From IMG/VR virus record IMGVR_UViG_3300037313_000338: DNA of 64,000 bases. The stretch is one strand, 5' to 3'. The notes beneath the pieces were generated by a model. It was not told the DNA's origin. It made no database searches and saw nothing but the letters and a program-made list of their open reading frames with translations. Source of the DNA: an uncultured virus (IMG/VR IMGVR_UViG_3300037313_000338). Its lineage: Duplodnaviria; Heunggongvirae; Uroviricota; Caudoviricetes. A program made the position numbers and the translations under genes. Shown piece by piece: positions 3,295 through 12,784 of this stretch (position 1 is the first letter of the stretch; the number at the start of each line of letters is the position of its first letter).

Positions 3295-3359
3295 CGGTGT
3301 AGGTTGACACTTCACTTCACCCTGTGGCATAATTTGATGGGGTGAAGTGGAGAGTTAAC

Positions 3360-4608: not shown

Positions 4609-4821
4609 ATGCTTAACATTAACCCCGGTGCGGAATATTCGTTTGACTACGTTGGTCAGGACGGTGAGAAGACGTCTCGTACGATCCTCTTTACTGGTCT
4701 TGTGGCTAACGCGGCTAAGGGTAATGTCTACCTTCGTGGGTACGACACGTCCAAGAAAGAATACCGCACGTTCAACGTGGCAAATGTTGATCTAGTATCC
4801 CTTAAGCACGTTCGCGGCTAA
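4609..4821 (+). CDS. stand-alone WYL-domain protein
   Basis: FDYVGQDGEKTSRTI...VYLRGYDTSKKEYRTFNVANV matches the WYL pattern (FxY...G..T.R...YL.GYD...E.RTF). Confidence 0.75.
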   Translation: MLNINPGAEYSFDYVGQDGEKTSRTILFTGLVANAAKGNVYLRGYDTSKKEYRTFNVANVDLVSLKHVRG

Positions 4822-4901
4822 GGGTTGAACGACCGAACCTGTGACGTTTGCGCGTCACAGGTTCGGTTAATACGTATTCGTCATTGTTATAGAGGTGAGG
4901 A

Positions 4902-5210
4902 ATGGTTCCCAACTATTATCTGACCAGCCAAAGCTATGACGAATCGAAGCTGGGAAAATTTCCACACGATCCTAACCGGACGTGGAATCCAGGTAAGATG
5001 GAATGCGTGTGGATCACATCGCCATCACCGGATGATGTTACTCATCCGGAACGCCTAGGGAATTATTTAGGCGTGTTCGACACACGTCATGGTGTTAATA
5101 TCTTCGGCAAAGGTGATGTTTTAGTCGATGCCATTTGGCCTGACGACGGCGATCACTTAGGCTTAGGTCGTAGTGCAAATGGTATAGGGGTGTATAGCGC
5201 AGTTTGGTAG
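4902..5210 (+). CDS. hypothetical protein, 3' end runs into degenerate tRNA-Pro
   Basis: GAGG RBS; the stop codon lies in the D-loop of the pseudo-tRNA. Confidence 0.55.
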   Translation: MVPNYYLTSQSYDESKLGKFPHDPNRTWNPGKMECVWITSPSPDDVTHPERLGNYLGVFDTRHGVNIFGKGDVLVDAIWPDDGDHLGLGRSANGIGVYSAVW

Positions 5211-5263
5211 CGCATCATTTGGAAACAGAGGGTGGCAGGTTCAAAATCCTGCCACCCCGACCA
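5186..5263 (+). pseudogene. degenerate tRNA-Pro(TGG)-like gene
   Basis: Pro-like D-arm (GCGCAGTTTGGTAGCGC), T-arm and CACCCCGACCA 3' end are present. The anticodon stem does not pair, there are 2 extra nt after the acceptor 5' strand, and the T-loop has an extra A. Confidence 0.7.
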
Positions 5264-7023: not shown

Positions 7024-7055
7024 GATTGCGACCGACGGACAAGGCTTTGGCCCGA

Positions 7056-7326
7056 GAATTAGTAAGAGTCACAGTTGGCGAGCCCGCACCTATGATGCGG
7101 TGAGTGGACCCGACGCCGACACAAGCTTGCTAGTTCGTTAAATAGGGATGGGTAGCGCGTGGTCGAGTTCGCATAATGGAAGGCGGTCTGTGGAAACATG
7201 GATCGCCTTCTTATTAATCAATTTTCGAAACTAGGTTCACAGCGCATCGGAACACTGCGTTGTTTCTCGGAGCGGCGCGTTCCCGTCGTATATTCCCTAT
7301 GGGTAGTCTGAGAGTGTGAGCCTAGT
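7056..7326 (+). ncRNA. cluster of three structured RNA-like domains
   Basis: Closing stems GAATTAGTAAG/CTTGCTAGTTC (7056-7136), GAAGGCGGTCTGTG-GAAA-CATGGATCGCCTTC (7179-7210) and ACTAGGTTCAC/GTGAGCCTAGT (7230-7326); no credible ORF. Confidence 0.45.
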
Positions 7327-7356
7327 CCCGCAAGTGGATTAATAACGGAGTGAGCT

Positions 7357-7650
7357 ATGGTGGACAGGCCAGAACTAATTCCTCATCGCAGGTTGAATTT
7401 GGCAGAGGCGCGTCGTCTGTTGGAAATGTACGACGACAACGTGCCTAACGCTCAAGCCGATCCGCAGAAGGAAACTCGCGACAAGCTTGAGTGGGCTATT
7501 AATAACGCGGAAAAGCTAAACGTGTTGTTTCGCGGGGCGCTGGACAAACAGTCCATAAACGACGTTGAGCATTACATGATTTTGTTAGGAATGCGGTTCC
7601 CGCCTAACGAAGACCCGTTCAAGGCGACCAAAACCAGCACTTTGCACTGA
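7357..7650 (+). CDS. hypothetical protein
   Basis: GGAG RBS and ATG. Confidence 0.6.
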   Translation: MVDRPELIPHRRLNLAEARRLLEMYDDNVPNAQADPQKETRDKLEWAINNAEKLNVLFRGALDKQSINDVEHYMILLGMRFPPNEDPFKATKTSTLH

Positions 7651-7663
7651 ATTTCGGGCGGAT

Positions 7664-7693
7664 TTGACACGACTTTAGGGCGTGTGATATACT
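7664..7693 (+). promoter_or_regulatory. strong sigma70-type promoter driving ncRNA array
   Basis: TTGACA-N18-TATACT, with TG one nt before the -10 (extended -10). Confidence 0.75.
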
Positions 7694-9065
7694 TGGGGCT
7701 CCACACGACTAGCAGCTTTTGTAAGAGAGCCGTGAGCGCACGTTCTGCGGGGTTATCCCGAGGCGTGATGGAGCTAGTCAATCGTGTGACGCGGACAACA
7801 ATTACCTGTATCGGGCATAGCCGCTGTTGCCATTAGGCTTGAGGATAAGGCCTCAAGTGTCTAGCGGACACGTCACACAACGGTGGGGAGACGACTACGC
7901 AGTTACTCGACATTCCTGCGCCCCGGTCGTCTCCCCACTGTCTCTCAACCATTCTTTATTTAATAAACTATCTCTTCATAGGAACCCTGGACGCGACCGA
8001 ACACGGTGCTAATCCCACCGCTGGCCTAGCTTTAGTCGGTTACTATCCACGGTTTCTACCAAGAGACAGTCGTCTAGGAGCAATGCCGTCTTTGCGCAGA
8101 GCGGAACGCACGTTGCTGACACTGATACTCTTTGAACCACTTGGGGCCGGGCGCGGCCCCGCCATTCCCGAGAGCTAAGGTCCGTTTTATTAAACACGGT
8201 TGCTGTGGGACCGAGACGTGAGCAAGGTAAGCGGAGGCCTCCGTTTGATCCATGCACGTCCTTTTAGTAACGCCGGTGGGCTCCGGTATACAAATGCCCA
8301 ATTCTCTCAAGGGAAGTTTGGCACGACTACACTGCGGCTTGGCTAGTTCGCAGGAAGAATGGTTAGAAGCCCTTTCCAGTCGGACCGTTGGATCAACGGC
8401 TTAGCGAGACTTCCGCTTGAGAGATTAGTAAGAGTTTTATTGAGCCAAAGTAAACCTGCGCTGCGGAATGGTGGCGCGGGGCTGATTAACAAAGAGCGGA
8501 CAATTAATCCTCGCGATCTGCAATCGTCTGGATTGTCATGGCGGCGACCTAAAATCGCGGCATCCTAGGCATGACATTAACAAAACCGCTGCCCTCATGC
8601 AGGAGGGAGACACGGGGATATGCTGCGGCCCTCGTCTGTGCTTTGGTTCAATCAAACTTTTACTAATATTGAACAGCAGTAGAAGGCATTCGGCCCATCC
8701 GCCAAAGGTAGGGGTTTGTTTTCTTGAAACTGCTCCAAAGTAAATGCTGAAAGTGCCTACGGTACCCAATGGGCGCAGTTAGTGGTTGCTTGGCAGAACT
8801 CATGATTCTGTTTTGAGAGTAGGCTGCTGTTGTTCAATATTAGTAGAGTTCCAGAACGGCGAGTCCATTCGAACGAGCGGCATTTGCGAGATCGAATGTA
8901 CGTGGTAACTATAATGATCGGTGCGGCCCTTACGGCCCCGGCGACGTTGTAGGTCGAATGGGCTTTCCCTTCTGGAAACAGAAAACCAATCTGAGAGCTT
9001 CGTCCAAGCTAGGTAATCGGGCAACCGATTGATAGGGGTATCGAATCCCCTAGTTCTCAGAGAAT

Positions 9066-9128
9066 GGACGTAGAGTGTACGATTAATAACCGTTGCGGAC
9101 CGGGGTGCGATTCCCCGCGGCTCCACCA
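9066..9128 (+). ncRNA. ssrA: two-piece (permuted) tmRNA, acceptor piece
   Basis: T-arm CGGGG-TGCGATT-CCCCG followed by CGGCTCC-ACCA; GACGTAGAGTGTACG pairs with CGTATATGCGTC of the coding piece (P2). Confidence 0.9.
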
Positions 9129-9346
9129 TTAAGCCTTCCGACGGCCATTTAAGTATGGCGCTGACACGACGCGAAGCGTGTTAGTATCTGAAACGTACGG
9201 TAGGCTTAATCGAATAGATAGTAGCTCGTTGACGCTGACTGAAACACCTTTTGGTGGTAGGAACCGGCAGAGAGCCAAAGAAACCGGGTACTAATTCCTT
9301 AGAGGATTAGAACTTTGGGGCCTTGCATTATCTATTCGAACCAAGT

Positions 9347-9538
9347 GGGGCCGATCAGCATCGACGTGCGGCTAAAAGCGTATATGCGTCTCGGCATGAT
9401 TCCGCCGTTATCGGGTCAAAACTCCAAATGCCAACGAGAACATCGCTGGTCAGGAAATGGCTCGCGCGGCCTAACGGCTTCGCTAGTTAAATCCTACTTG
9501 TGGCCCGGAGGGAGCCATATCACCCAATCCCTCCACCT
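9347..9538 (+). ncRNA. ssrA: two-piece (permuted) tmRNA, coding piece; tag (A)ANENIAGQEMARAA
   Basis: 5' GGGGCCG pairs with CGGCTCC including G3.U70; GATCAGCATCGAC D-loop-like motif; tag frame 9430-9474 (GCC AAC GAG AAC...GCG GCC TAA) resembles alphaproteobacterial ANDN...AA tags. Confidence 0.9.
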
Positions 9539-9832
9539 TTACTAATAGCTAGATATGAGTCGGACACATCGATCTGGACTTCACACGTTGCAATGGTTTT
9601 CTCTCCCCCGGAGTAACGTGTGTGAACAACTCCCTGTCCGGGTTTGTTTGGGTCGGTGTGTCTCACTCATGTCTAATTATTAAACGTTGGTACCTGAGAA
9701 TACATGCTTCTCGATGGGATCAACCCATTGAGTTCCACATGTTGGCAATCTTGCCACTCCCTAACTTGTGGAGGGCGTGTATTCTGTCTCGTGTCATCGG
9801 GAGACAAGAGAACAAATAGTAGGAATAGTAAG

Positions 9833-10084
9833 ATGCTACGACTGAACGCTATGGAATTGGCCCTAAGCGTTATCCGCGAACGTAACCAACATTCGCGGAA
9901 GCTCGAAAAGGCTGTCGAAGAAATGGATACTCTGGCGGCCAAGGCTATGGCCGAGCCGGACGAAATGAAGCGAATTGCTTTATTAAAGCAGATTACCAGC
10001 CGTGCGGGTACCGCGCTTCTCGAAGAGCGGAGTTTCGACTCCGCTGTCTCGGAAGTGCAGGAACGTGCTAAGCTATTAATGTAG
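9833..10084 (+). CDS. hypothetical helical protein
   Basis: AGGA RBS and ATG; coiled-coil-like composition. Confidence 0.6.
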   Translation: MLRLNAMELALSVIRERNQHSRKLEKAVEEMDTLAAKAMAEPDEMKRIALLKQITSRAGTALLEERSFDSAVSEVQERAKLLM

Positions 10085-10247
10085 TCCGTTACCTCCCCCG
10101 GTTGGTAAGCCAATTCACCGGAGTCCTAACCCGAAGCTGAAGGGGACGGCGCACAGAGGTTATTACGTCTAGAGGGCAGACAAGCGGACCTTAAGCAAGT
10201 AGCGCCATCTGTCTTGGCCGTAATAACTAGAAATCCGGCTAGAAGGG

Positions 10248-10281
10248 AAGGCCCTCGGTGGAAACATCGGGGGCCTTTCTT
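10248..10281 (+). terminator. intrinsic terminator
   Basis: AAGGCCCTCGGTG-GAAA-CATCGGGGGCCTT followed by TCTT. Confidence 0.65.
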
Positions 10282-10396
10282 GTATGTGGATGCGGTTTGG
10301 GGATGCTATGAGACGCGACGGTCCTCTCAAGGGAGGGTTGGTAGGATAGAACTTACAACTCGTAGCATCCAGCCCAACCGCATAGGAATTAATAAC

Positions 10397-10648
10397 ATGT
10401 ATCGGATCACCGATCACGCTATTGTGCAATTCCTAGAACGTGCACTAGGAATCGATATTCCTGCCGTACGTGAGCAACTACGTGCGGTGGTGGAATTGGC
10501 GGTAGCAGAGAATTCTGAGCGTCCGCAAGTCAAAGGGTGTCATCTAGTAATAGAAGACAATGCGCTTGTCACGGTCTTGAGTCCGACTATGCGACCTAAG
10601 AAGGTTAAGAGACGCAAGGAAAACGTCCCCGCCTGCTCGACCGCATAA
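10397..10648 (+). CDS. small protein with ITDHA..FLER motif (possible RelE-like fold)
   Basis: MYRITDHAIVQFLERALGIDI...LVIEDNALVTVL. Confidence 0.55.
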   Translation: MYRITDHAIVQFLERALGIDIPAVREQLRAVVELAVAENSERPQVKGCHLVIEDNALVTVLSPTMRPKKVKRRKENVPACSTA

Positions 10649-10689
10649 ACGCCTAATTTGACGGCACAGGATTTAGTAAAGGTGTCGCA

Positions 10690-12066
10690 GTGGCGGTCAA
10701 ACTATCTACTCTACCGGCTCCGACGTATCGGCGCGGTGCGCGCGGTGTTCGTAAAATCGCAGTCCCCGTTCGTGCGGAACTGAAGGCCAAAAATCTCTTC
10801 GAGGAAGAGGAAGAGAAGCAGTTATTAGAAGAAGTGCACGAACTGTTCGACGGAACGTATTCGGTTATTAGGCCGGGTCCGTGGAAGCGAGCGTTCCGAC
10901 CTTCGGGTTTCCCGTATTGCCCGGTACTCGACGCGATGACCGGTCCGGAGAACATGGACTATGGTAAAGCGTTCTACCTCGATATCGGGACCACTGTTCA
11001 CGCGCTTATGCAGGAATATATCGCGCGGTCGGCGCGAGGCCGCACAAACGTCTTTGCTAACTGGAAATGCAAGGATTGCGGCGGCGAACATATCTTCACG
11101 CCTATTCCTTACGTGTGCGCTTTCTGTGGCGCTGATAGTGAGAAGCTGGGTTACGAAGAACTAGCGTTCGAGAACGCGTTTGGCATTCAAGGCGGCCACA
11201 TCGACTTGTTAGTAAAGACTAGCAAGGGTTGGATTGTGGGAGACTGGAAGACCGCTTCTGAAATGGGCATGGACTACCGCAAAGAGGCTGACGGGAAACA
11301 CCACCACCAGCTACAAGCGTACTGTCTAGCGATCCAAGAGTTATTCAAGGATCACCTTCAGGGATTGCCGGTAATCGGCTACATGCTGATTTTCGTTCCG
11401 CGCGATGCGTCAGGACGGCGAGATTCCAAAGGTGACATTAGTAGCTCTAACTGGACACCCTACATTTACAAGTGGTCTCCGGAAATGGCGGTGGAAACGA
11501 AACGTCGCCTGTTCACGCAACGCGCTAGTTACGAAGCTGCTTCGATTGGCTACGAAACTAATAACTGGCTACCGGCGGCGTGGTTACGGCCATGCCAAAC
11601 GTTGGCAGATTTCAGCAAGCCTATGGGCATGCGGGATGGTTTCTACCAAGGCAAGCTATGCGAAAATCTCGATACCTGTTGCCGTAGTTCGCAGGAAGTA
11701 GCCGATGGAATTATTAAATTCCGATCAACCGTGAACGAGGATACGGCGCGCAAGACTGCTTTTATTAACGAACAAAAAGCGGAGTACCTTGCGTGTGCAG
11801 CGCAAGGATTCGTTGCTCCATCGCTGCTAGCCGAATTGAAAAAGGCGCGTAAGGCGGATGACTATGACAACGAATACGTCGAATCGATCTTAGCGGTTAA
11901 GGCGTCATTGGAAGCCTTGCTAGCGATTCGCACGGCGCTTAGTAGGCAAAAGACTCTGGAGTTTTTCGGAGTTCCAACCGAAGAGGCCAAGGCGGTAGCG
12001 GCGAAGTCTGAACCTACGTGGGAACGGGAAAAGCCAACAAAACCAAAACGTAAGAAGGCGGCCTAA
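10690..12066 (+). CDS. Cas4-like PD-(D/E)XK exonuclease
   Basis: RPS...YCP, GT.VH, GHID...DWKT, QLQAY and C-terminal Cys residues; inserted CxxC..CxxC. Confidence 0.8.
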   Translation: MAVKLSTLPAPTYRRGARGVRKIAVPVRAELKAKNLFEEEEEKQLLEEVHELFDGTYSVIRPGPWKRAFRPSGFPYCPVLDAMTGPENMDYGKAFYLDIGTTVHALMQEYIARSARGRTNVFANWKCKDCGGEHIFTPIPYVCAFCGADSEKLGYEELAFENAFGIQGGHIDLLVKTSKGWIVGDWKTASEMGMDYRKEADGKHHHQLQAYCLAIQELFKDHLQGLPVIGYMLIFVPRDASGRRDSKGDISSSNWTPYIYKWSPEMAVETKRRLFTQRASYEAASIGYETNNWLPAAWLRPCQTLADFSKPMGMRDGFYQGKLCENLDTCCRSSQEVADGIIKFRSTVNEDTARKTAFINEQKAEYLACAAQGFVAPSLLAELKKARKADDYDNEYVESILAVKASLEALLAIRTALSRQKTLEFFGVPTEEAKAVAAKSEPTWEREKPTKPKRKKAA

Positions 12067-12208
12067 AAAGTTAGAACTAGGGTGTTGACACCCACTTCGT
12101 TAGGGCTTAAGTTTGAATTCATCGGAACACCGGACCGAGACACAAGGGTTTCCCTTCTCTCAGTCCAACCGCTAGTTGAGAACTGAAACCCTAACGGAGT
12201 TTACTAAC

Positions 12209-12655
12209 ATGAAGATCACGACCCTCGAACAAGCTAAGGCGTACATCAAGACGCTGGAAGCTGAACGCGACGCCCTGCGGCTGAAGGCCATCGGCCATCG
12301 CTCGGACGGTACCATTGACAAGTACACGGACATGGAAGCCGCCGAGCTTCGTGCTCTGATCGAACGTCGCGGCGGTGATCCGGACGAAATCGCCAAGGGC
12401 GCGCACAGCCGGGGTCGCTCGGTGCTGATGCGTCAATGGCTGCGTTCGCATCCCGGCAAGGGTGCGAAGGCTGAACCGGTGAAGTCGGTTACTAAGAAGC
12501 CGAAGCGTCCGCCTGAGCCGCCGCCGGTCGCTAAGAAGCGCAAGCCGAAGGTGGTCGAAGCGCCGCCCGCGCGCAAGCCGAAGAAAGCCGCGAAGCAGGC
12601 TGGCCGTCCGGCTAAGAAGGCCGCTGCTAAGCCGGGCAAGCGCAAGGCGATGTAA
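12209..12655 (+). CDS. putative DNA-binding protein, Lys/Ala/Pro-rich tail; paralog of 16150-16806
   Basis: Shared DKY...EL...RGG....I....H.R.R...WLR..P domain; histone H1-like tail. Confidence 0.65.
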   Translation: MKITTLEQAKAYIKTLEAERDALRLKAIGHRSDGTIDKYTDMEAAELRALIERRGGDPDEIAKGAHSRGRSVLMRQWLRSHPGKGAKAEPVKSVTKKPKRPPEPPPVAKKRKPKVVEAPPARKPKKAAKQAGRPAKKAAAKPGKRKAM

Positions 12656-12693: not shown

Positions 12694-12784
12694 TATCGGA
12701 AACTGCCAATAGGCCGCCTCGCGAGGCGGCCTAATTTTTGTCTGTTCTACAACTTCATTCTAGTGGCTTAAAGGCTAATAACCT

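Follow-up and report, generated by a model that had tools for sequence, protein, structure and literature searches.

Predicted structured RNA modules around and inside a two-piece tmRNA gene in a gene-free island of an uncultured jumbo phage

Genes for tmRNA are known in phages but poorly understood and, to our knowledge, the kilobase-sized gene-free islands around some of them have never been explained. An island of this kind in an uncultured soil jumbo phage, whose host probably belongs to the Caulobacterales, raises the question of what about 2.2 kb of gene-free DNA produces. In the window (the whole 64-kb stretch of DNA that was analyzed), codon usage delineated 14 non-coding gaps of at least 200 nt. 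The largest was located at positions 7651-9832 (2182 nt), with a promoter at its start, and the second largest had 586 nt. A preliminary description of this DNA, made from the sequence alone, had noted the lack of a credible ORF. Codon usage agrees with this claim, as does a search of 19 ORFs of the region against Pfam and PHROGs, which returned no match. The possibility that the region encodes small proteins was rejected on both grounds.

The promoter reported in the same description, TTGACA-N18-TATACT, was recovered at 7664-7693 with a consensus score of 11/12, and transcription is inferred to start near 7700. Eleven plus-strand sites in the window score at least 10/12, seven of them with an 18-nt spacer. 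The members of this 18-nt class precede genes or tRNA-Ala, being found, besides the island, ahead of tRNA-Ala (4068) and of genes at 3304, 6155, 6821, 27670, and 42797. Downstream from the island, the next gene starts at 9833, and the genes at 9833-12655 include one encoding a PD-(D/E)XK nuclease. No plus-strand intrinsic terminator was detected from the promoter onward until 12710-12733. One strong promoter and no terminator before that position fit a single long precursor including the tmRNA described below. The layout is therefore compatible with the single precursor that had been proposed, although the precursor itself is what we infer from it. We give an even chance to the stretch being the front of a jumbo-phage early transcription unit read by the host RNA polymerase, as part of the explanation that we favor. 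In the vicinity, a decayed tRNA-Pro is present at 5188-5258, 2.4 kb upstream from the region, and a neighboring 83-residue ORF has no homologue; the neighborhood varies among relatives.

The tmRNA claimed in the preliminary description was confirmed by two covariance models, RF04321 (133.5 bits, cut-off 47) and RF01849 (126.7 bits, cut-off 50), both aligned over their full length, and by ARAGORN, which called two tRNAs and this tmRNA in the window and nothing more. The gene, at 9066-9537, is of the permuted alpha type: an acceptor piece ending in CCA is located upstream from a coding piece that opens with the 5' acceptor strand. As read from the sequence, positions 9347-9353 pair with 9118-9124 to form the acceptor stem, the third pair being G.U (G3.U70). 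ARAGORN read the tag ANENIAGQEMARAA in frame 9430-9474, which has a resume codon for alanine, encodes AA at the C terminus, and stops at TAA. The tag ends in RAA, whereas most other ARAGORN-read tags of the compared loci end in LAA. The segment between the two pieces is 218 nt long, about eight times the approximately 26 nt found in 25 Caulobacterales-type bacterial loci; in the alignments to both models, about 190 nt are inserted here. It thus exceeds the short loop of the two-piece class; the extra length consists of two closed hairpin modules, and the long segment is a variant feature compatible with membership of that class. Judged from its sequence, the only identifiable product of the stretch is the phage's own predicted two-piece alpha-type tmRNA.

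The features of the island are as follows, P being the probability of the closing helix unless stated otherwise and z the comparison with shuffled sequences, which is biased by boundary choice where the module boundaries of the preliminary description were used.

7664-7693 (+): sigma-70-type early promoter, TG-extended (TG ahead of the -10 element)
7694-8432 (+): 5' leader with local hairpins only, not clearly above the genome background (z -3.3)
7785-7877, 7883-7938, 7971-8066, and 8303-8424 (+): hairpins of the leader (helix P 0.65, 1.00, 0.98, and 0.96, respectively)
8433-8658 (+): multi-branched closed module of 226 nt (closing helices P 0.94-0.99; z -5.7 for 8425-8666)
8659-8847 (+): closed module of 189 nt with a closing rod of ~30 bp, RNase III-like by shape (P 0.92, z -6.3)
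8849-8977 (+): Y-shaped closed module of 129 nt (P 0.91, z -4.6)
8986-9067 (+): tRNA-shaped cloverleaf (P 0.99, z -3.9)
9066-9128 (+): tmRNA acceptor piece with T arm, 3' acceptor strand, discriminator A9125, and CCA at 9126-9128 (RF04321/RF01849 alignment)
9129-9346 (+): tmRNA intervening segment of 218 nt with two closed hairpin modules, 9128-9210 and 9210-9339 (P 0.88 and 0.96; z -4.5)
9347-9537 (+): tmRNA coding piece with tag frame and 3' pseudoknot region (Rfam alignment, ARAGORN)
9543-9682 (+): rod-like closed module of 140 nt directly 3' of the tmRNA (P 0.94-1.00; z -7.5 for 9550-9675)
9697-9785 and 9786-9805 (+): two terminal closed hairpin modules with no U tract after them (P 0.99 each)

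Compared with 22 dinucleotide shuffles, the whole region folded beyond chance, with an MFE of -835.4 versus -692.4 +/- 13.5 (z -10.6); seven control segments of equal length gave z-scores of -2.2 to -6.2. The plus strand was favored over the minus strand by -125 kcal/mol, versus a mean of -39 (sd 31, extreme -93) in 24 controls. The modules preceding the tmRNA (8433-9065) had a z-score of -8.3 and a strand bias (-253 for the plus strand, -190 for the minus strand), as did the trailer at 9538-9805 (z -7.5; -113.6 and -83.9, respectively), versus z-scores of +1.1 to -2.4 for eight coding controls of 633 nt. Ensemble entropy was 0.36 for 8433-9805 and 0.75-1.45 for all nine controls. In contrast, the 5' part (7694-8432) was similar to coding controls, with nearly the same energy on the plus (-276.8) and minus (-274.4) strands and an entropy of 0.91. 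Thus, the exceptional structure is confined to 8433-9805 (~1.37 kb) and is absent as such from the first 740 nt. The tmRNA itself folded with a z-score of -4.8, and the structure predicted around and inside its gene exceeds that within it. Simpler statistics did not set the region apart: fixed 120-nt windows did not separate it from the remaining window (p = 0.17), and its eight perfect stems of at least 9 bp are inside the range of 1-11 in other segments. The GNRA loops that had been claimed were not enriched, accounting for one of 41 MFE hairpin loops.

Unbiased folding recovered 9 of the 12 non-tmRNA modules of the preliminary description, with a closing-helix probability of at least 0.62. 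The three others did not hold: the closing helix of 7702-7786 had a probability of 0.10-0.30 (z -1.2), and that of 7946-8364 a probability of 0.00, as did that of 9708-9803, which is replaced by the two terminal hairpin modules. Since end-to-end domains arise in any MFE parse, the abutting layout carries no weight on its own. The "about a dozen distinct RNAs" that had been announced are better described as nine or ten robust modules concentrated in 8433-9805. Closing rods of 20-30 bp are present in several of them, so that RNase III-like stems stand as features of the predicted structure; by the criterion of ~20 bp or more of near-continuous double-stranded RNA, candidate rods occur in 8659-8847 (including a 15-bp perfect core), 9543-9682, and 7883-7938. 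In the cloverleaf at 8986-9067, positions 8990-8996 pair with 9055-9061 to form an acceptor-like stem of 7 bp, a GCAA tetraloop caps the arm located where a tRNA has its anticodon arm, and the hairpin resembling a T arm has a loop of 8 nt instead of the canonical 7. A CCA is lacking, and the element ends 4 nt upstream from the tmRNA acceptor piece. No tRNA model matched 8840-9072 at E ≤ 10, and ARAGORN made no tRNA call for the cloverleaf. The motif TTASTAA was considered as a signal of module boundaries and rejected (73 copies genome-wide; 4 in the region versus ~2.4 expected).

None of the non-tmRNA modules was recognized by known families, as the preliminary description had stated. A search of 7500-10000 with Rfam 15 at E ≤ 10 returned only the tmRNA and three chance-level matches (15.5-19.3 bits, far under their family cut-offs), and a separate search of 8840-9072 returned one 12-bit match. 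No tRNA, intron, or ribozyme signal was found in these modules at E ≤ 10. The bacterial Y RNA-like (Yrl) RNAs, which are linked to Rsr/RtcB, had no Rfam match, and no Ro-like (TROVE) protein was present among 20 proteins of the window that were scanned. The claimed lack of a primary motif shared by the modules was also borne out; when 7600-9900 was compared with the 64-kb window by sensitive blastn, only the modules' own inverted arms were detected. MITE- or REP-like elements were rejected, as no further copies exist within the window. A decayed tRNA array was rejected because there is no tRNA signal and because the stretch is too stable.

Comparisons with other genomes did not reveal a relative of the island. 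Among 50,697 phage records compared with 7600-9900 by blastn, the only match was 52 nt of the tmRNA T arm, in the Caulobacter phage CcrSC. In IMG/VR, searches with both flanking proteins and with the DNA polymerase returned no relative. At least 118 stretches carried the T-arm pattern, with the motif alone matched among the matches listed, and 12 loci with the alpha-tmRNA pattern aligned over tmRNA parts only. An exact 32-nt T-arm search returned bacterial contigs and genomes only. The nuclease encoded at 10690-12066 had 10 relatives (58-80% identity, contigs of up to 205 kb), and its sole relative in IMG/VR (45% identity) is on the distantly related genome G001. That genome lacks a tmRNA and DNA-level similarity (best E 0.41), and none of its ORF-free gaps exceeds 724 nt. 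Among the sequencing runs listed, none was an RNA run and two were DNA runs. One of these may be the source, and the other contains an identical 151-nt contig and therefore offers no sequence variation to use.

The explanation that we favor, with about even confidence, is that the stretch is an early transcription unit for the tmRNA and that the modules on its flanks work in cis, through an effect on folding, processing, or stability. The entire stretch would be transcribed as a single precursor, from which the tmRNA pieces would be freed by the host enzymes that process tRNA and tmRNA: RNase P would cut at the start of the coding piece, the 3' end would be trimmed to the CCA, and RNase E or III would act elsewhere. 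Since each closed module would fold on itself, the modules could not mispair with the tmRNA, and tmRNA folding would be insulated. The modules may also provide well-defined sites of cleavage, either double-stranded or shaped like a tRNA, and protect ends from exonucleases as caps; the tRNA-shaped module would flag the start of the acceptor piece. Once freed, they may remain as stable by-products. In favor of a cis role, the modules occupy the sites at which the ends of the tmRNA have to be generated, two of them belong to the intervening segment, which is removed in any case, and the structure clusters around and inside the tmRNA (z -8.3, -4.5, and -7.5) in comparison to coding controls. Processing elements of related kinds are known, since rRNA operons and the early transcripts of T7 carry RNase III processing stems, and tRNA-like punctuation elements exist. 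The predicted long double-stranded rods and the tRNA-shaped element bordering a stable RNA resemble these; however, the modules are far larger than known sites, and the tRNA model does not recognize the tRNA-shaped module. The tRNA cluster of T4 similarly encodes, among eight tRNAs, the stable RNAs C and D, which are ~120-140 nt long and have an unclear role. Both are phage stable-RNA units in which structured RNAs are, or here would be, co-transcribed and processed with RNAs of the tRNA family, but T4 has two such RNAs and eight tRNAs, and the present island about nine modules, a tmRNA, and no tRNA.

Several observations weigh against a cis role. Sequence searches of the databases covered revealed no homologue for any of the non-tmRNA modules. 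Three other viral two-piece tmRNA genes (L219, L220, and L226) are tightly bordered by ORFs and have no module arrays, indicating that long structured flanks are unnecessary for tmRNA maturation, and G001 has neither a tmRNA nor a comparable gap. Finally, 1.4 kb of extra structure is much for a purely cis role.

A close parallel is found in the Bertelyvirus phages CcrSC, CcrBL9, RB23, and BL47, in which an island contains a tmRNA, three tRNAs, and structured spacers. Shared features are the jumbo-phage genome, a host from the Caulobacterales (a probable one for the present phage), a non-coding RNA island about 2 kb long, and a permuted tmRNA accompanied by long, self-closed structured spacers biased to the plus strand. 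The differences are the three tRNAs, of which the present island has none, and a sequence similarity limited to the 52 nt of the T arm. A 348-nt spacer of the Bertelyvirus island had a z-score of -6.3. In an alignment of four sequences from three lineages, from which the structure was also derived, 436 of 436 pair cells of the spacers were kept, and eight pairs were altered on both sides, versus none in six slid controls. The spacer modules are 93-96% identical and the whole island 84-91%, a difference that might point to an independent function of these modules. By analogy, these conserved structured spacers may speak for a cis role, and their higher identity may also speak against a purely cis one. 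Their RNAs had no match in Rfam. Covariance models of two Bertelyvirus modules, R1 and R2, built from the four phages, scored at best 12.2 bits (R1, 9551-9674) and no more than 7.6 bits (R2) in the region. R1 reached 14.0 bits in the other 53.5 kb of the window, and the top score, 17.6 bits, was at 7215-7341, outside the region. Homology to the Bertelyvirus modules was rejected, since scores in the region were no better than elsewhere.

A possible but less probable explanation is that the robust modules are independent phage RNAs acting in trans, for example by sequestering host RNA-binding proteins, RNases, or defence sensors as decoys or sponges. They would be co-transcribed with the tmRNA and processed in the same way, the tmRNA gene and its intervening segment serving as a delivery chassis. 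The stability of the modules, which is greater than that of the tmRNA (z -8.3 and -7.5 versus -4.8), the self-closure of every robust module (P at least 0.88), the predicted early transcription from a strong promoter, and the compensatory changes and high identity of the Bertelyvirus spacers are consistent with such a role. It is less easily reconciled with the lack of a common motif and of repeats, with the absence of known decoy families among Rfam matches, and with the other viral tmRNA loci examined, which lack such modules. The more specific proposal of a trans-acting battery of about nine phage-specific modules, freed from the tmRNA precursor by host enzymes for a decoy or anti-defence function early in infection and with Bertelyvirus as a second instance, appears doubtful.

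It is distinctly unlikely that the modules are functionless debris or selfish insertions, such as decayed tRNAs, remnants of introns or homing elements, or palindromic mobile elements, accumulated in a permissive stable-RNA locus. Insertions are tolerated in intervening segments, as illustrated by a viral contig (L227) in which the tmRNA intervening segment holds a 144-residue ORF with a weak HNH match (21.0 bits, cut-off 21.4). The decayed tRNA-Pro nearby upstream, the near-background structure of the 5' 740 nt, the variation among relatives, and the adjoining ORF without homologue would also fit decay. However, z-scores of -7 to -8, low entropy, and a strong plus-strand bias are not expected of decayed genes. 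In addition, there was no tRNA, intron, or ribozyme signal at E ≤ 10, no second copy within 64 kb, and no protein remnant in the Pfam and PHROGs searches.

A role of the stretch as a leader or trailer regulating the genes at 9833-12655 (riboswitch, put-like antiterminator, or translational control) is very improbable. No terminator separates the island from these genes, and the OM43 phage Melnitz is reported to have a glutamine riboswitch 3' of its two-piece tmRNA gene (PMC9004378). The ssrA genes of Melnitz and pelagimyophages resemble the present locus in being alpha-type permuted genes of large lytic-type phages, in being located just behind an early promoter, and in carrying an extra structured RNA, in Melnitz a glnA-type riboswitch (PMC9004378). 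In contrast to Melnitz, the island has a non-coding leader of ~1.37 kb, composed of ~740 nt of weaker structure followed by ~630 nt of closed modules, a trailer of ~270 nt, and the 218-nt intervening segment, and these parts match no known family. Riboswitch and leader families were unmatched at E ≤ 10, 2 kb far exceeds known leaders, and the last hairpins have no evident terminator or antiterminator alternative.

A single giant ornate RNA, also put forward in the preliminary description, is extremely improbable: the size, phage origin, and proximity to genes of the tRNA family recall GOLLD and ROOL, large structured ORF-less RNAs that are reported to be often phage-borne near tRNA genes (10.1101/2024.12.08.627333; PMC5737381), but the models of both were unmatched at E ≤ 10, and the domains are predicted to form a chain of independent closed modules rather than one interlocked fold. 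The sole long-range helix of the unconstrained fold, 8064-8135/9341-9413, has an energy of -44.9 kcal/mol, versus a mean of -52.8 for the best duplexes of shuffled leaders. The best duplex of the real leader lay elsewhere and was equaled or exceeded in 14 of 150 shuffled leaders. Anti-tmRNA pairing by this helix was rejected as being within chance.

The suggestion that the phage RtcB ligase acts on the modules was not supported. Eighty RtcB loci had no similarity to the region, no tmRNA, and no synteny. RNase III and RNase P leave 5'-phosphate and 3'-OH ends, and RtcB joins 3'-phosphate or 2',3'-cyclic phosphate ends to 5'-OH ends. Ligation of RNase III or RNase P products by RtcB is therefore unlikely, owing to this mismatch in end chemistry.

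What is new at this locus is the elaborate structured precursor predicted around and inside a known kind of phage tmRNA gene. If the modules are mere spacers, the locus is an ordinary phage gene for tmRNA whose precursor is unusually elaborate. Conserved, covarying, and uncatalogued spacer RNAs are seen in the analogous islands of cultured Caulobacter jumbo phages. If the modules are functional, they would add a new layer to phage RNA biology, whether as scaffolds for maturation or as RNAs acting early and in trans.

The largest of the 14 gaps of at least 200 nt in the window, 7651-9832 (2182 nt; the runner-up measures 586 nt), contains a permuted tmRNA gene and a series of predicted RNA modules. 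A codon-usage score trained on 31 long genes detected no coding signal from approximately 7620 to 9780, and the region's 19 ORFs (40-109 aa) gave no match to Pfam or PHROGs (E ≤ 0.1), in agreement with the preliminary description, which reported no credible ORF for about 2.1 kb. The identity of the tmRNA gene, also recognized in that description, is certain, with matches of 133.5 bits to RF04321 and 126.7 bits to RF01849 in Rfam, in addition to an ARAGORN call. The 3' 1.37 kb of the region was split by minimum free energy (MFE) folding, with a span limit of 450 nt, into abutting domains, whose closing helices have probabilities of 0.88-1.00. The features are as follows.

569-1801, RtcB gene
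4107, tRNA-Ala (ARAGORN and Rfam)
5279, tRNA-Asn (ARAGORN and Rfam)
8433-8658, plus strand, predicted closed module (MFE domain)
8659-8847, plus strand, predicted closed module (MFE domain)
8849-8977, plus strand, predicted closed module (MFE domain)
8986-9067, plus strand, predicted cloverleaf-shaped module (MFE domain)
9025-9537, permuted tmRNA (Rfam match span; ARAGORN and Rfam)
9066-9128, plus strand, tmRNA acceptor piece with CCA at its end
Start G9347, plus strand, tmRNA coding piece (sequence and Rfam alignment)
9543-9682, plus strand, predicted closed module (MFE domain)
9697-9785, plus strand, predicted closed hairpin module (MFE domain)
9786-9805, plus strand, predicted closed hairpin module (MFE domain)

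The consensus promoter proposed at the start of the island was retrieved at 7664-7693 (TTGACA-N18-TATACT; 11/12, TG-extended -10). Together with other plus-strand sigma-70-like promoters it forms a coherent class, in which seven members with an 18-nt spacer precede genes or tRNA-Ala. The positions of these promoters, which are all intergenic and have an unusual spacer length, are 3304, 4068, 6155, 6821, 7664, 27670, and 42797; one of them directly drives tRNA-Ala. The first plus-strand terminator after the island promoter is located at 12710-12733.

Nine of the 12 non-tmRNA modules originally delineated were supported by the fold. The remaining three were not, namely 7702-7786 (closing-helix probability 0.10-0.30), 7946-8364 (0.00), and 9708-9803, which was superseded by two different hairpins. 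In line with the lack of a shared motif initially reported, the modules share no sequence with each other; nor do they share any with the rest of the window. They were also unmatched in Rfam, which returned only three chance-level matches at E ≤ 10 beyond the tmRNA. Module 8986-9067, directly 5' of the tmRNA, combines a cloverleaf shape with a 7-bp acceptor-like stem, a GCAA-capped arm, and a T-arm-like hairpin; it was rejected as a tRNA since neither Rfam nor ARAGORN calls one. Independently, the palindromic heptamer TTASTAA occurs in 73 copies in the 64 kb, on both strands and also within genes, including 8264, 8425, 8660, and 9539 in the island, which is not enriched. Its 8-mer form TTACTAAT is present in 24 copies versus 1.8 expected, a count reached in 0/100 shuffles. 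This motif may act at the DNA level, for example as a site of modification, nicking, or binding, or may result from codon usage.

The z-scores of the modules as first drawn (-1.2 to -7.5) are biased because boundaries had been picked to close stems. Two crude unbiased statistics failed to distinguish the region: windows of a fixed 120 nt with z below -3 (6/34 inside versus 63/968 outside, p = 0.17) and perfect stems of at least 9 bp (8 versus 1-11 in other 2.1-kb segments). In contrast, statistics allowing long-range closure separated it. The whole region folded at -835.4 kcal/mol versus -692.4 ± 13.5 in 22 dinucleotide shuffles (z -10.6), whereas seven same-length controls, picked from more stable segments, only reached z of -2.2 to -6.2. 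The minus strand folded at -710.6, and the resulting strand difference of -125 exceeded that of all 24 controls (mean -39, sd 31, extreme -93). By segment, z was -3.3 for the 5' part (7694-8432), which showed no strand bias, -8.3 for 8433-9065 (plus -253 versus minus -190), -4.8 for the tmRNA (9066-9537), -4.5 for its intervening segment, and -7.5 for the trailer (9538-9805; plus -113.6 versus minus -83.9); eight coding controls of 633 nt ranged from +1.1 to -2.4. Mean positional entropy was 0.36 for 8433-9805, 0.91 for the 5' part, and 0.75-1.45 in 9/9 controls. G.U pairs and GNRA loops had been put forward as the signs of selection at the RNA level. Since GNRA accounts for one of the 41 MFE hairpin loops, and G.U for 100 of the 731 MFE pairs, the evidence for RNA-level structure is the strand bias rather than loop types.

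Within the tmRNA, the sequence and the Rfam alignment indicate that the first seven bases of the coding piece pair with 9118-9124, the third pair being G.U. ARAGORN reads the tag frame 9430-9474 as ANENIAGQEMARAA. With its ARAA terminus, the tag differs from most of the alpha-type tags, bacterial and viral, that this program read, which end in ALAA or LAA; host proteases may recognize it differently. The intervening segment comprises 218 nt versus approximately 26 nt in bacterial loci, the surplus consisting of two predicted closed hairpin modules, 9128-9210 (closing-helix probability 0.88) and 9210-9339 (0.96). This segment tolerates insertions, as shown by a viral two-piece tmRNA gene of the IMG/VR contig L227 (2341-3114), in which it measures approximately 490 nt and holds a 144-aa ORF. 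This ORF matches HNH endonucleases weakly (21.0 bits versus a cut-off of 21.4), and the excised part of that gene would thus carry an insertion of the homing type. Unlike the island, the viral two-piece tmRNA genes of loci L219, L220, and L226 are closely flanked by ORFs, indicating that long arrays are not generally required. In a 67-kb genome contig labelled as a Saccharimonadales MAG, a lineage in which alpha-type tmRNA is not expected, two alpha-type acceptor ends lie approximately 160 nt apart, possibly owing to mis-binning or an integration scar.

The source phage is large, uncultured, and from soil metagenome runs; a second soil run provided a single matching contig (151 nt), identical to the phage sequence. 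Genes are on the plus strand nearly throughout and include those for thymidylate synthase, topoisomerase II subunits, a UvsX-like recombinase, and a DNA polymerase only 28% identical to that of the closest cultured phages. The nuclease encoded 0.9 kb downstream of the island (10690-12066) is at most 36% identical to proteins of the closest cultured phages and has 10 homologues at 58-80% identity; a distant relative (45%) has neither a tmRNA nor a comparable gap. Searches for related DNA retrieved no homologue of the non-tmRNA modules. The host is likely a member of the Caulobacterales, because the 32-nt T-arm/acceptor end of the tmRNA has an identical copy in 25 genome contigs, mostly of Hyphomonadaceae, Caulobacteraceae, and Aquidulcibacter. 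Immediately upstream of tRNA-Asn, a degenerate tRNA-Pro(UGG) (5188-5258; 24.6 bits, cut-off 29; no ARAGORN call), apparently lacking about 2 nt in the 5' strand of the anticodon stem, overlaps the end of ORF 4902-5210 and resembles the intact tRNA-Pro of five RtcB-bearing viral contigs (L020, L046, L052, L066, and L068).

The sole phage match by blastn was Caulobacter phage CcrSC, in which a tmRNA and three tRNAs lie within an unannotated island of approximately 2 kb. This island is kept at 90.6% identity in CcrBL9 and at 84% in the RB23/BL47 group. Its spacers are predicted to be strongly structured (z -6.3 for a 348-nt spacer; plus -176.8 versus minus -143.2). In a four-sequence alignment representing only three lineages, with two nearly identical rows and a structure derived from the same alignment, 109 predicted pairs were intact in 436/436 cells, both-side changes affected eight pairs versus none in six slid controls, and the covariation score was reached by 0/500 shuffles. 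Covariance models of two of these spacer modules gave no convincing match in the island of the window, with at most 12.2 bits against a maximum of 14.0 bits over the remaining 53.5 kb. Homology was therefore rejected, and the Bertelyvirus island is an analogue. The top match in the window (model R1, 17.6 bits, rough E 0.003) is a 127-nt stem-closed module outside the island, at 7215-7341; the second non-coding stretch 7024-7356 (333 nt), upstream of gene 7357, also contains a strong hairpin at 7179-7210.

The most economical reading, to which we give about an even chance, is that the whole island would be transcribed as a single early precursor, in which self-closed modules would shield tmRNA folding, provide cleavage sites, either double-stranded or shaped like a tRNA, at the boundaries where the tmRNA termini have to be generated, and protect the ends. 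The main rival, which we regard as rather unlikely, is that the modules would be RNAs with their own functions, freed by the same processing; their extreme predicted stability argues for it, as does the fact that the analogous modules of Bertelyvirus are highly conserved in sequence. An origin of the modules as debris or insertions is improbable, a regulatory leader more so, and one giant RNA is the least credible. The suggested action of RtcB on module RNAs found no support here; RtcB does not join the kind of ends that RNase III and RNase P generate. The evidence neither establishes nor excludes the novelty implied by the term undescribed multi-ncRNA system. The spacers separating the tmRNA and tRNA genes in the cultured Bertelyvirus phages CcrSC (4639-4986), CcrBL9, RB23, and BL47 contain conserved, unannotated, stem-closed RNAs absent from Rfam. 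They are put forward as candidate novel RNAs of phages whose host is tractable. The locus described here is a real, unusually elaborate phage tmRNA locus.
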